The notes: a model not told the origin generated them from the sequence alone. Positions 1-63,033 are shown, counted from the whole stretch's first letter. The stretch: 63,033 nucleotides of DNA, filler included, from Stramenopiles sp. TOSAG23-6 (GCA_900128565.1; 12 parts of 12 records of this genome joined end to end with filler, not necessarily neighbours in it), one strand, 5' to 3'. Numbers and translations are program-made.

Positions 1-59
1 AGGTACAAAATTTCGTACGAAAAAAAATAAATTCGAAATTGAAAAAAAATAAAACATAC
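1..59 (-). mobile_element. Repetitive intron (introner-like), 5' part; scaffold begins inside it
   Basis: Minus strand reads GTATGTTTT...TTTTCGTACGAAATTTTGTACCT. Confidence 0.8.
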
Positions 60-1616
60 AATTCTTCGCTGACATTTTCCAGGGCTGCTTGGACTTGTTT
101 TATATCATCTTCATATTTTCGACGTATTTCTTCAATAATCGAATTTGATCTTGTATACTCACTTTCAAAATACTCTTTTTTCTTTTCTACTATTTTCAAT
201 TTACTTTCCACTTTTTCTCTCTCTTCCTTTGCTACTACATATATGTGAAAAAATATTTCAAAAAAAAATCTAAAAAAATTGTTAGGTACGAAATTTCGTA
301 TGAAACAAAAATTAGAAATTCATATAAAACATACAGCATTTTGTTGAGCTTTGTCTTTATTACTTCGTAGGTCTGTAATTAATGAATTTAAACGCTTTAT
401 TTCCCCAGAGAAATATGAATTACTACTATTTCTAAATGTTTCTTCGTCATTACTACTATTTTCTGATTTTAATTTGTCGACTTTGAGTTGCAAAATTTCA
501 TTTTTTTCTGATAATGATTGTATTAATTTATCCTTCTCTTGAAGAACGACAAGAATTTTTTCACTTCGTTTTTCAGCTGCTTTTTTCATTGTTGAATGCA
601 CTGTGAAGAAAATGTCAAATTTGAAATTTGTTAGGTATAGAATTTGATACGAAAAAAAAAAATGAATTTGAACAATACAGTTGAACAATACATTTGAACA
701 ATACAGTTGAAGATTTGTAATGAAAAATGAAAACGTATATTTATTGTGAAAAAAAATATATATTTGAAATTTGTTAGGTACAAAATTTCGTACGAAAAAA
801 AAAAATGAATTCGAAATTAAAAAAAAAAGTTGAAAAATGAAAACGTATATGTGCCGCTTCAACCGTGGACGATTTCATCTTGTAATGATCTATTTCTTGT
901 TTTTGTTGATATATTTCTTGTTTATGTTGATCTATTACTTGTTTTTGTTGATCTATTTCTTGTTTATGTTGATCTATTTCTTGTTTATGTAGGCTTATCA
1001 AGGTATTTTTAGATTCAAGTTGTTGAAGCAATTGTTCAGATGAATTGAAAGTACTGTCTCTATTTGTTACTGTTTTTGCTACATTATTGGCAGCAACTCT
1101 ATGTTTTGAGGGAACTGAACTAGATAATGTTTTACGTGCATCTTTGAGACTTTTGGTACTTATTTGACTGGTAGTAGCAACCATCTGCTTTGTTCCCGGA
1201 ACAGCACGGTTGAAACTCTGGCTTTCTTTATGCGATTTCGATAATTCTCTTGTTGATGTTTCTTTTACCGTCTTTTTTTTGGTTATTTCTTTATTGTCTA
1301 GAGGGGCAAGAAAAAAAGTAGCATGGAATTTCTCGTCAAAAAAACGACTACGGATATGGAAAGTATCACGCTGACCAGATTCTCCACGTGAACGATTTGC
1401 AAACTTTTCAATGTATAAAGTTACCTTCAGTGATGTATTGGCATTTGCAGCCAATGTAATTTCCGAAGGTGAAACAGTGTACCGACCAGGAGAACCAGGA
1501 CGTACAGTAAAATTGATAGTACTGGCTTGAGTATTGACAATGCGTACATGCTTGATATACCTCTTTTGAAGGGTCACTCCATGGAACTCAAGCTCCTCCG
1601 GATTCACACGAATCAT
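60..1616 (-). CDS. PapD/MSP/ASH-like Ig-fold N-terminal domain plus long coiled coil (probable centrosomal/ciliary protein); 3'-partial. Exons 1616-849, 595-335, 238-60
   Basis: ORF 774-1616 N-terminus (VNPEELEFHGV..VRIVNT..FTVRP..YTVSPSEITLAA) fits an ASH/PapD-like fold. Removing the family introns gives a continuous frame ..EAAH|STMKKAAEKR..QQNA|VVAKEEREK.. Confidence 0.7.
239..334 (-). mobile_element. Introner-like intron, GT...AT
   Basis: GTATGTTTT...CATACGAAATTTCGTACCTAAC...TTTCACATATAT; phase-0 removal restores the coiled-coil frame. Confidence 0.8.
596..848 (-). mobile_element. Two head-to-tail introner units (848-739 and 738-596), both starting ATACGTTTTC
   Basis: Each unit has its own core and 3' tail; removing both gives GCA CAT|TCA ACA ATG. 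Confidence 0.75.
886..990 (-). repeat. 21-bp coding tandem repeat (EIDQHKQ heptad, ~5 copies)
   Basis: TTGTTTATGTTGATCTATTTC-like units; translation KQEIDQHKQEIDQQKQVIDQHKQ. Confidence 0.85.
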
Positions 1617-1901
1617 AATAATTATATATTTAATCTAGCGATATCTCTATATATATTGTCCTGCGTAAAATATCCTTGATTTTGGTACAAATTGTCAATT
1701 ATTCAAGAGATTTGAGATTCAAGATTGACTTTTTGAGATAGACTCTCAAGTTTGAAATAAATTGACGTTCAAAATTTTATAATTATTTTTTTGAGTTTTT
1801 TTCGTGTTTTTTTGTGTTCGTGTGGAAGGATTCAGCAAATTTTATGGGTCATGTCGTGGGTCATGCACTATTTATATTCATCGTGGATCGAATAAGCCAC
1901 G

Positions 1902-60800: not shown

Positions 60801-62980
60801 GATGTTTGTATTGTAAGATCATTTTGCAATATTAGTAATACTCGTAGATGTTTAACAAACAACGATTGCCCGGAAGAAGAAATATGTGCCTTAGAGCTTC
60901 CAAAGGTGTCCAGTCGAATGTGCAATAAAACAAAGGATCAGGACTGTACAGAAGACACGGATTGTCCTAAAGGTGAGAAATGCATTGTCACCGCAAAGTG
61001 CAGTTTAACAAAGACGATGAAATGTGCGCATAAGGAAGAATGCCCAGCTGGTGAACTTTGTATTCCATTGTTACTTGCAGGACAGAAGGCGGTTTGTAAT
61101 ATTTGCAGAAAAAAATGTCAAAAGAAAACTGATTGCCCGGCTAATGAATTTTGTGTTCCGAAGAAATGGTGCGAAGTATCTGTTGAAGTTCCATGTCTTC
61201 AAGATTCCGATTGTCCATTGGTAGACGAAAATTGTATACCAGAAATGCTTGCAGGAACTAGTCTAATGTGTACTATCACTCAAAGTATTACATGCAAAGT
61301 CAATAAAGATTGTCCCCCAAAAGAACATTGTGTATTGAGAGCGTTTTGTAGTGTCACAAAAAGTAAACGTTGCGAAAATGATACCGATTGTCCATCTAAT
61401 GAAGTGTGTGAGCCTGTAAGATCAAAGTTTCAAGGTATGTGTTCTGTAACATGGGAGAAAAAATGTGCCGATACCAGTGAATGTCCTATGTCGGAGATAT
61501 GTGTTCCAAGAGACGATGATTTGTTAGCTCAGTTAGAAGCTCTTCAAAAGCAGCTTGCAGATTTACAGCGGTCATCTAGTAAATTATGTACATTCAATTC
61601 AGATTGTGAATGGTTGCAACGCTGTGTTTTGGGTGCATGTACCACAGTTACCGTTGGTACACGATGCGGGGGTGGGGAAGAAGCAGGAAATGGAATGTAT
61701 TGTTACGTTGATAAAGCAAGATCATTGGGTGGGCCAGTTGTATTGTACAATGAAGGAAAACGGTGTACGTTAGAGAGTGAACCGGAAAAGAGTGGAGTAT
61801 TAAATAATTGTGGTCCTGGATTGCATTGTGATCCTGAAACTCACCTTTGCCGAGTACCTTCTGGGGGGAATTGTGGGAGAGGAGTCTGTGAGGGTATTAT
61901 TAAAAAAGTAAAAAAAGGATCTAGCTGTATCGAACCTTCAGATTGTACATATGGGCAGCGATGTGTTACGAAAAAATGCACATACACATATGTTGGTAGT
62001 GCATGTCAAGGTAATTCAGACTGTGGTGCTGGAATGGAATGCGATGTGAGTAATCATTGTAAATGGATATCACCATGGGAAGGGAAGTCTTGTACATCTG
62101 ATAGAGATTGCGGCGATGGACAAAAATGTGGACCTGCTCAATTTCCAAAATGGAAAGGTAAGTGTAAGAACGTTTGTAATGGTTGTGAAACGGAAGATAA
62201 AAAATGTGCGAATGGAATGCTTGGTCTTCCACGTGTGCTAGGTAAAAATTTGAAAAGAACATTTAGATGCGTATGGAATGAACCTCCTCCTGGGACAATG
62301 TGTAGCGACACAGGCGACTGTGGTCCTCTTCAGAGATGTAAGAATAATGTTTGTCGTATAACTGAAATAGGTTCAATGTGTACAAATATCTCAGATTGTG
62401 GATTCGCACAGGTATGCCAAGCAAGTATGTGTGATATAGTAAAGGATGGTGAAAAATGTTCCAAATCTGGAAAGCAATGTGGAAATGGCCAGCGTTGTGT
62501 GAATGGAGAATGTCATGGCGAGCGACATTCATCTGGAAATTGGTGCAACAAACAAAAGGGTAAGGCAATAAAAGAACCCAAAGAAAAACTTGAAGGCAAG
62601 CTCATTTCATTTCGTTCAACAGATTGTGCTAAACGCGAAATATGTCGTGAAAATGTTTGTGTGGTGACACCTGTATCATCCGTGTGTGAAGAAACAAAGT
62701 TTTGCGGCAATGGAATGTATGTTTTCAAAAATGATTTTTTTTTTTTTTTAGTACGAAATTTTGTACCTAAGAAATTTTTGAATTTTTTTTTTTTAAATTT
62801 TCTTTTTTTATACCATAATTCACACCTAACAAAAAAAAATTAATGTAAAATATTTTACAAAATACATGAAATGTATAGATTTTAGATGTACATTTGGAGA
62901 AAGAAAAAATACTGACATTTCCATTTCTAAAGAAGGTGTATCTTGTAAGACAACATCTCAATGTGAAACTCAAGAAAGAT
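57891..62980 (+). CDS. Giant Cys-rich repeat extracellular protein (C-x6-C-x5-C-x5-C units); partial at both ends; frameshift at ~59760-59795. Introns 62717-62867 (GT-AT), 62981-
   Basis: More than 1600 aa of repeats such as CSKTRKLTCLLDSDCPKSEIC; spliced CGNGM|KCIDFRC. Confidence 0.8.
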
Positions 62981-63033
62981 GTATGTTTTATTTTTTTTCA
63001 AATTCGATTTTTTTTTCGTACGAAAGTTTGTAC

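Follow-up and report, generated by a model that had tools for sequence, protein, structure and literature searches.

The stretch of DNA analysed here (the window) is a 63,033-base sequence from Stramenopiles sp. TOSAG23-6, made up of 12 pieces of about 5.1 kb each joined via N-TTAATTAATTAA-N linkers. Its GC content lies between 20 and 40%, its open reading frames (ORFs) are open under the standard genetic code, and a run search revealed that its DNA is also present in a small 2015 data set, in seawater metagenomes and in seawater metatranscriptomes. Unrelated genes, among them an SDS22 (PPP1R7) gene, a PUF-repeat gene, an EF-hand/Pro_dh gene, a sulfatase-adjacent gene and a CCDC53-like gene, carry copies of a single family of repeated inserts, most of which begin with GT and end with AT. 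The terminal AG, which is read early by U2AF35 and at the second step by the catalytic core, is among the most constant features of spliceosomal introns. Our analysis indicates that this introner family, which resembles miniature inverted-repeat transposable elements (MITEs), probably acts as spliceosomal introns and that AU is probably tolerated at its 3′ site.

Analysis of the repeats revealed a 26-nt core with 42 occurrences in the window at no more than three mismatches, against none expected from shuffled sequences. A family profile made from 15 full copies gave 64 matches in the 63 kb (nhmmer, E<0.01) on 11 of the 12 scaffolds, the scaffold at 42145-47295 being the only one without a match at this cut-off. 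The typical element measures 88-113 nt, with a few longer composites, and putative GU-AU introns occur in the window at a density of approximately one per kilobase. Its consensus, in which a caret marks the intron edge, reads (C)AT^GTAYGTTTT, a variable T-rich left arm, a core ending in GTACCTAAC, a T/A-rich right arm and TTTT(T/C)CA(C/A)AATA(C/T)AT^G. A first-pass annotation of the same DNA had reported about 55-60 inserts on 11 of the 12 scaffolds, with a consensus running from AT^GTAYGTTTT through GTACCTAAC to CAMAATACAT^G; the profile matches bear out the former and the family alignment the latter. Pairwise identity between copies ranges from 50 to 97% with a median of 72%, and the alignment columns kept in at least 80% of copies fall into three blocks, GTA.GTTTT, GTACCTAAC and TTTT.CA.AATA.AT. 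Conservation concentrated in these blocks despite the 72% median identity is what would be expected if splice signals, including the last AT, were under selection. Two sub-types, judged by eye in the alignment, carry GTATGTTTTATT...CCAAAATACAT and GTACGTTTTCATCAT...TCACAATACAT, respectively. Outside the window, the 26-mer core had no match in a metagenome contig collection or in a viral contig collection, while a 17-mer core was found at 64 loci from many habitats, two of which gave a weak partial profile match (E 1.9e-4) and none of which looks family-like.

To describe the intron ends, we used a curated set of 33 copies with both ends placed by the family alignment (several counts cover 32 of them, without the copy at 7160-7258). 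Not counted were 13 copies truncated by N runs or by scaffold ends, short partial matches, partial copies in the LRR-gene region, the copy at 6637-6742 (+; 5′ GTACGT), whose frame allows TA, AA or AC at the 3′ end, a composite at 27314-27503 with N downstream, and the copy at 28117-28235, whose upstream flank is noncoding. The terminal pairs are GT-AT in 23 copies, AT-AT in three, GC-AT in one, GT-AG in five and GT-TT in one. The 3′ ends are therefore AT in 27 copies, AG in five and TT in one, with 29 GT, three AT and one GC at the 5′ ends, and 28 of the 33 copies end in AT or TT where a canonical intron has AG. The earlier count of about 25 AT, five AG and three TT ends holds for the AT majority and the AG class, while the TT class shrinks to one. 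All four AG-ended copies present in the alignment acquire their AG by a T-to-G change at the aligned AT position; the fifth, at 7160-7258, lies outside the alignment. As the first-pass annotation had said of several copies, AG can be missing altogether: 15 of the 26 AT-ended copies examined contain none. The first AG past CCTAAC falls in exon 2 in 21 of these 26 copies and is in frame in five of the 21, about the chance rate.

The internal signals are equally regular. GTA.GT, kept in at least 80% of copies, constitutes a U1/U6-compatible 5′ hexamer. The motif GTACCTAAC, kept at the same level and followed by a T-rich tail, is, on its sequence, the putative branch site, and, measured from the second A of CCTAAC, the 3′ end follows after 31-46 nt in 28 of 29 copies and after 60 nt in the remaining one.

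Orientation and reading frame support the intron interpretation. Among 40 matches covering at least 60 model positions, long ORF flanks were found on the sense strand only in 19, on the antisense strand only in none, on both strands in 15 and on neither in six, the last being explained by N runs; this agrees with the sense orientation claimed for the copies. The family-aligned cut puts back in frame all 25 copies with unambiguous flanks, meaning a frame of 25 codons or more that is at least double the length of the next-best one; chance would give one in three for each. A consistent frame pair with at least 20 codons on each side exists for seven of the other eight. Insert lengths are distributed 9/9/14 modulo 3 (n=32), so 23 of the 32 are not multiples of 3, and read-through reaches a stop within 23 of the 32 inserts. 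The mixed lengths and internal stops mean that the inserts behave as introns and not as coding insertions.

The exact position of the cut could be examined in host proteins. In the SDS22/PPP1R7 gene, removal of the GT..AT copy at 2854-2953 (+) joins LEEC to WLNNN, and the product is colinear without gaps with its two closest homologs. Scored against a profile of 119 homologs, this cut obtained 404.4 bits, the best of 97 models comprising 96 frame-keeping cuts and the public model. The latter, EukProt entry P0001 (gene 1944-3135, +), obtained 373.8 bits, 30.6 below the GT..AT model; it is 100% identical over exon 1, takes a piece of the element into its translation and leaves out 12 conserved residues including WLNNNPI. 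P0001, whose identifier contains 'MAST3', is the only near-identical protein in a large protein database, the next relatives showing at most 48% identity. Many family introns in this genome are probably mis-annotated.

In the PUF-repeat gene, the phase 0 GT..AT intron at 21323-21414 (+) divides a PUF repeat 25+11, with colinear Pfam profile positions. Residues 8-63 of the 65 encoded by exon 1 align to residues 103-155 of 1ib2_A, and residues 3-179 of exon 2 to residues 160-337; extrapolation from these aligned stretches places the junction between residues 157 and 158 of 1ib2_A and between 147 and 148 of 3bwt_A, two Pumilio-family proteins of solved structure, with no gap. A third gene contains a GT..AT copy splitting an EF-hand at 30659-30771 (+; clear frames): the exon after 30771 starts at position 5 of the Pfam profile EF-hand_1, and the upstream exon supplies the four missing positions.

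The first-pass annotation had cited four junctions as restoring conserved motifs. Those of PPP1R7 and PUF are confirmed by the comparisons above; for the two others, the evidence is consistency of frame. The GT..AT copy at 31256-31360 (+), in the proline-dehydrogenase-like gene, is frame-consistent, but its protein support amounts to a sub-threshold hit, the upstream exon matching Pfam Pro_dh positions 65-95 with E=1.1e-4, below the curated cut-off; the two exons of the Pro_dh region gave no usable match among solved structures (PDB). The GT..AT copy at 15045-15140 (+; 5′ GTTTGT) is frame-consistent too, but N cuts its upstream ORF, and the ankyrin label given to this gene was not confirmed, the exon after 15140 having no Pfam hit at E≤0.01.

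Evidence from RNA and from independent DNA was obtained by aligning Logan contigs, rather than raw reads, to window positions 1-5188. A polyA contig of metatranscriptome X8 (record 30, depth 11.4), which carries leftover adapter at each end, passes straight from 4906-4825 to 4732-4685 and leaves out 92 nt. The skipped length is that of the GT..AT copy at 4736-4827 (-; 5′ GTTTGT), where an 8-nt repeat at both edges, TACAT^GTT, lets the cut read GT(4827)...AT(4736). A second X8 contig (record 29, 432 nt) matches 3546-3965 and continues with 12 unaligned letters, 3965 being the first exon base after ACAT of the GT..AT copy at 3966-4060 (-; clear frames). The upstream exon of this copy ends in TA, which makes its register unambiguous: an AT-AC register would extend the match to 3967, but the match ends at 3965. 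This edge backs the AT^G cut, in a manner supportive rather than conclusive. For the gene at 3196-5175, protein searches at near and longer lengths found no transcript-derived near-identical protein.

In the independent DNA metagenome X3, contigs at 2042-2892, 2945-3993, 4005-4215, 4247-4580 and 4801-5160 pass from exons into elements, which they enter at 2892, 2945, 3993, 4005, 4215, 4247 and 4801; the copy at 2854-2953 has such contigs over both edges. No base differences are listed at the AT ends. Contigs running into the elements in this way show that both the elements and their AT termini exist in natural genomic DNA. The summed contig depth of X3 bins holding elements is hundreds to thousands of times that of neighbouring exons, a value that does not measure copy number and gives a hint of high copy.

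Some features of the elements could be traces of mobility. Their six outer bases are inverted (ATGTAT...ATACAT) and the core TTCGTACGAA is near-palindromic. The exon upstream of the intron ends in AT in 22 of 32 copies; it shares its last dinucleotide with the intron in 20 copies, the one TT-ended copy among them, and the two do not match in 12. The flanks of 30 copies show A at -4 in 14, C at -3 in 11, G at +1 in 20 and T at +2 in 13, a bias that fits an ACAT^GT-like palindromic target around a putatively duplicated AT.

We propose that each copy would bring its own signals, namely a yeast-like 5′ GTAYGTTTT, GTACCTAAC, a U-rich stretch of 31-46 nt and the 3′ block CAMAATAYAT, and that the RNA would be removed from the G of GTAYGT through the last T of this block. 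What suggests removal by a spliceosome is the combination of a textbook 5′ hexamer, an invariant branch-like motif and a U-rich tract. In this lineage, the spliceosome would accept U instead of G as the final intron base and retain A at position -2; within this explanation, we consider it likely to be the major, U2-type one. The A found at position 1 in three of the 33 copies, together with the last U, suggests a G.U or A-U contact between first and last bases replacing G.G; that the last U pairs with the G or A at position 1 is speculation. As for their spread, the elements would move as DNA transposons with a 2-bp AT duplication, the intron corresponding to the element plus the right-hand duplicate and its 3′ AT to the duplicated copy of the target. 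A more far-reaching version, in which the default 3′ site of the major spliceosome is now YAU in this MAST-3-like stramenopile and an AT-duplicating transposon supplies the acceptor and fills genes, stands in our judgement evenly poised. Of the earlier claim that a relaxed 3′ site is coupled to an intron invasion, the relaxed site and the invasion are supported by the 25 frames out of 25, the two proteins and the RNA contigs, whereas the altered spliceosome itself is what we infer.

Several observations weigh against this explanation. First, transcript evidence concerns two of the 33 introns and comes in both cases from one metatranscriptome (X8); the 12 unaligned letters of record 29 could be adapter sequence, and a contig of the non-polyA RNA library X6 (record 15, 4783-4933, -) keeps part of the intron at 4736-4827, which could represent either unspliced pre-mRNA or DNA carry-over. 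Secondly, three curated copies begin with AT and not GT, which a standard U2-type site would not tolerate, and the set of termini found here (GT-AT, AT-AT and GT-AG) is the set that the minor spliceosome reportedly tolerates (PMC1557818). Thirdly, neither a small nuclear RNA (snRNA) or other Rfam family nor a splicing-factor gene was found in the window. Fourthly, the 5′ and 3′ ends pair by 3-4 bp only and the folds are weak: ten copies gave -6.3 to -15.5 kcal/mol with z from +0.19 to -2.82, and a 4-bp GUAU/AUAC end stem, which leaves the AU unpaired, appeared in the minimum-energy fold of three of the ten. Structure-guided excision by end pairing of the euglenid type was rejected on the same folds, which are weak and inconsistent. 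Regarding the spread of the elements, the duplication model fails in ten of 32 copies, where the upstream exon has some other dinucleotide at its end, and the large ORFs of the window contain no transposase domain, nor was an autonomous partner seen; with these points a transposon origin is something we infer, and reverse splicing into CAT^G-like sites is a possible origin as well. Finally, 20 of 32 copies have the same last dinucleotide in exon and intron, and in these the mRNA is identical whether the register is GT-AT or AT-AC.

This ambiguity of register is the ground for the alternative that survives best, although we consider it unlikely, in which both cuts lie two bases further left and the introns are AT-AC (AT + GTAYGT ... 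ATAC). AT-AC is a known terminal pair of U12-type and some U2-type spliceosomes. Besides the upstream AT, ATAC is conserved as strongly as the final AT, and GTACCTAAC matches the U12 branch consensus at six of eight positions. However, the ten copies without an upstream AT would then start with CT, TA, AG, AA or TT, 29 of 33 copies have the perfect GTAYGT in the GT register, and the RNA contig of record 29 stops two bases short of the AT-AC prediction. The occurrence of AG at the aligned AT position in four of the five AG-ended copies also speaks against it, an argument that matters only if the cut follows AG. U12-type introns have [AG]TATCCTT as 5′ site and a branch typically 10-26 nt from the 3′ end; the family consensus GTAYGTTTT shows GT in place of CC, and where the U12 branch rule calls for TCCTTAAC within ~10-26 nt, the elements have TACCTAAC at the longer distance given above. 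On both counts, the 5′ site and the spacing between branch and 3′ end, a standard U12-type intron is disfavoured. The minor spliceosome is nevertheless reported to splice GT-AT and AT-AN introns, and rare GT-AT and AT-AT cases are on record (PMC1557818); the first-pass annotation, which had given AG and AC as the U12 3′ ends, was in this respect incomplete.

Splicing at canonical GT-AG sites only, with part of the element translated and nearby exon sequence removed, is very improbable. The public model P0001 does exactly this in SDS22, at the cost of 30.6 bits and a conserved motif, and against the five downstream AGs that happen to be in frame stand 16 of 21 that are not, in addition to the 15 copies without any AG. 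Both RNA contigs contradict the use of the next AG (+10 and +12), which is contradicted at three loci in all.

Equally improbable is removal at the DNA level, as for the eliminated sequences of ciliates, by which element-free RNA would be transcribed from rearranged DNA. The short inverted ends and precise excision edges would suit such a process, and a single bridging RNA contig cannot discriminate between the two. The first-pass annotation had named DNA-level removal as a refutation of its reading; the X3 DNA contigs, however, retain elements inside genes, as does the source assembly. Element-free DNA may still occur as a rarity beyond the X3 joints listed. The genes are open under the standard genetic code, and DNA removal needs no 5′ splice site, branch-like motif, U-rich tract or sense-only orientation. 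Least credible of all, the inserts would never be removed, being either recent insertions that break genes or artefacts produced during single-cell amplification and assembly: 13 copies at scaffold ends or N runs and an inverted duplicate around 11239-11407 do show assembly artefacts, but the 25 exact frame restorations out of 25, the absence of antisense-only copies, the same junction sequences in an independent DNA sample, an RNA contig without the element and the conserved signal blocks contradict it.

The remaining curated copies, whose frames come from the curated frame table unless otherwise stated, are spread along the window. At its left end, a GT..AT copy of 96 nt with 3′ ATATAT lies at 239-334 (-; clear flanking frames, consistent), followed at 596-848 (-) by a tandem double copy read as one 253-nt AT-AT intron (5′ ATACGT, 3′ GCAT; consistent frames of 262 and 91 codons), and the GC..AT copy lies at 4188-4282 (-; clear frames, family alignment). 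GT..AT copies follow at 6392-6491 (+), 7473-7571 (+; ATATAT), which is consistent with the second-longest upstream frame, and 7742-7843 (+). An AT..AT copy at 15537-15625 (+; 5′ ATATGT) has an ambiguous downstream frame. Further GT..AT copies are found in a histidine-phosphatase-like gene at 20688-20781 (+), downstream of the CCDC53-like exon at 23183-23275 (-), and at 25764-25864 (+; ATATAT), 25963-26054 (+; TTCAT), 27625-27725 (-; CCCAT) and 37006-37097 (+). Towards the right end, they lie at 50507-50605 (-), 51096-51199 (-; frames ambiguous), 51829-51934 (-; 5′ GTACAT), 52658-52757 (+; 5′ GTTTTA, N just upstream), 54352-54452 (-), which has a different middle part, and 62717-62867 (+), a longer copy of 151 nt. 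A diverged AT..AT copy of 153 nt is located at 54023-54175 (-; 5′ ATACGT; consistent frames of 95 and 276 codons).

The five GT..AG copies are those at 7160-7258 (+; consistent frames of 166 and 180 codons), 8066-8156 (+), where the alignment and the curated frame table place AG at the aligned AT position, and 12228-12315 (-), 27822-27912 (-; 5′ GTCCGT) and 31018-31121 (+), the last three placed by inspection and the curated frame table. The same two sources place the single GT..TT copy at 39894-40001 (-), whose upstream exon also ends in TT.

No clear intron of another kind was seen in the window besides family members and relatives with an inverted core. Two such relatives occur in the LRR gene: the one at 49657-49745 (-) combines the family 5′ end GTACGTTTT with an inverted core and a 3′ T-run followed by TAG, its 3′ cut being putative, and the one at 49897-49984 (-) likewise has the family 5′ end, an inverted core, a T-run and TAG. 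With a GT-AG cut, the flanking ORFs are frame-consistent in neither; at 49897-49984, the ORFs, taken as sole evidence, agree with a cut just past CAT at 49899, the AG lying two bases further on. In the same element-rich region, a pair of telomere-like CCCTAA units is embedded in a degenerate family copy at about 51690-51720 (-).

Some copies lie close to one another. Those at 3966-4060 and 4188-4282, in the same gene and 127 nt apart, are about 95% identical by eye; the first starts with GT and the second with GC, the second having CCTAAT for CCTAAC. Such a near-identical pair suggests local re-insertion or duplication. In the double copy at 596-848 and in the composite of two copies at 27314-27503 (-; profile matches), the second copy begins right after, or inside the tail of, the first. 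Tandem or nested copies of this kind are consistent with a target preference resembling the element's own ends.

Thirteen profile matches are truncated by, or terminate at, an N run or a scaffold end, and the repeats thus appear to break the assembly. They comprise the 3′ part of a copy cut by a scaffold end at 5133-5188 (-) and the matches at 1-46, 10404-10461, 11178-11204, 11442-11468, 15696-15734, 20897-20977, 21106-21161, 26186-26257, 26377-26437, 26641-26723, 26815-26867 and 62994-63033. Two segments, at 11180-11205 (+) and 11441-11466 (-), are identical including about 70 nt of flank and stand in opposite orientations around the N run at 11239-11407, an arrangement that resembles an inverted duplication created artificially by single-cell amplification or during assembly. 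Frame switches in long ORFs also occur without a family element, at 17776-17818 (+), between an EF-hand ORF and an FH2 ORF, and at 59790-59796 (+), between ORFs of 635 and 1017 codons; frameshift errors, tiny introns or directly adjoining genes could each account for them.

If AU-ended splicing of this family is confirmed, it would be the first natural system with GU-AU as the dominant intron class, hidden until now by mis-modelled gene predictions, and at the density of the window thousands to tens of thousands of copies would exist genome-wide. The combination of a GU 5′ end with an AU 3′ end, in a protist lineage that is free-living and ecologically abundant, would offer a natural experiment on acceptor choice by the second-step active site, complementing Fritillaria, where both intron ends changed, and would provide a clear case of a transposon target duplication dictating a splice-site dinucleotide. 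Gene models of this genome, and probably of related single-cell genomes, would be wrong wherever predictors demand AG, as exemplified by SDS22, with consequences for proteome-based phylogenomics and for the functional profiling of uncultured marine stramenopiles.

Literature searches over the full text of articles found no description of a GT-AT introner family, and the portions available of the MAST genome papers PMC5778133, PMC8163842, PMC12614181 and 10.64898/2026.04.17.719054 contain no splice-site statement. Introner invasion and relaxed splice rules are both known, and a GT donor with a majority AT acceptor in a stramenopile appears to be undescribed. Surveys of introners start from annotated introns, and a 2025 survey expects AG or AC at the 3′ end and drops families with unfamiliar sites that lack RNA support (PMC12130899). 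Relying on annotated introns, such surveys would probably miss an AT-ended family.

The closest parallels come from a 2024 review (PMC11282704), which describes, for Fritillaria, Amoebophrya, dinoflagellates, Physarum and euglenids, non-canonical introns of transposon origin together with spliceosomes that have adapted. Like the present family, the introners of Micromonas, Aureococcus and dinoflagellates are high-copy elements of about 100 nt, lie in the sense orientation in unrelated genes and bring part of their own signals; they also share short inverted ends and one splice site plausibly derived from target duplication (PMC11282704). Those introners are GT/GC-AG, whereas the acceptor here is AT in 27 of 33 copies and the proposed AT duplication is missing in about a third. 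The MITE-derived introns of Fritillaria borealis (AG-AC, AG-AT) resemble our case in combining mass invasion with a spliceosome accepting non-AG 3′ ends (PMC11282704), by a mechanism that reportedly involves divergent, duplicated U2AF paralogs (PMC13326754). Fritillaria is an animal, however, with a noncanonical 5′ AG and diverse termini, whereas the stramenopile family has a GTAYGT 5′ site, a branch-like motif and one dominant 3′ dinucleotide. Amoebophrya, a marine protist as well, harbours repeated introns with inverted ends and direct repeats, many of them non-canonical, but their termini are highly variable and U1 snRNA is apparently absent (PMC11282704), in contrast to the uniform ends and U1-compatible 5′ site found here.

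The same terminal dinucleotides are known from animal GT-AT and AT-AT introns, which are U12-type apart from one conserved U2-type case; these are single introns, seven GT-AT and 12 AT-AT in the table of one survey (PMC1557818). In the present stramenopile, by contrast, they form the majority class of a repeated family. Yeast-type U2 introns follow the pattern GTATGT ... TACTAAC ... YAG. The family shares their 5′ hexamer and has a branch-like motif with one extra C, but it differs from them in three copies that begin with A and, above all, in an AT where yeast has YAG.

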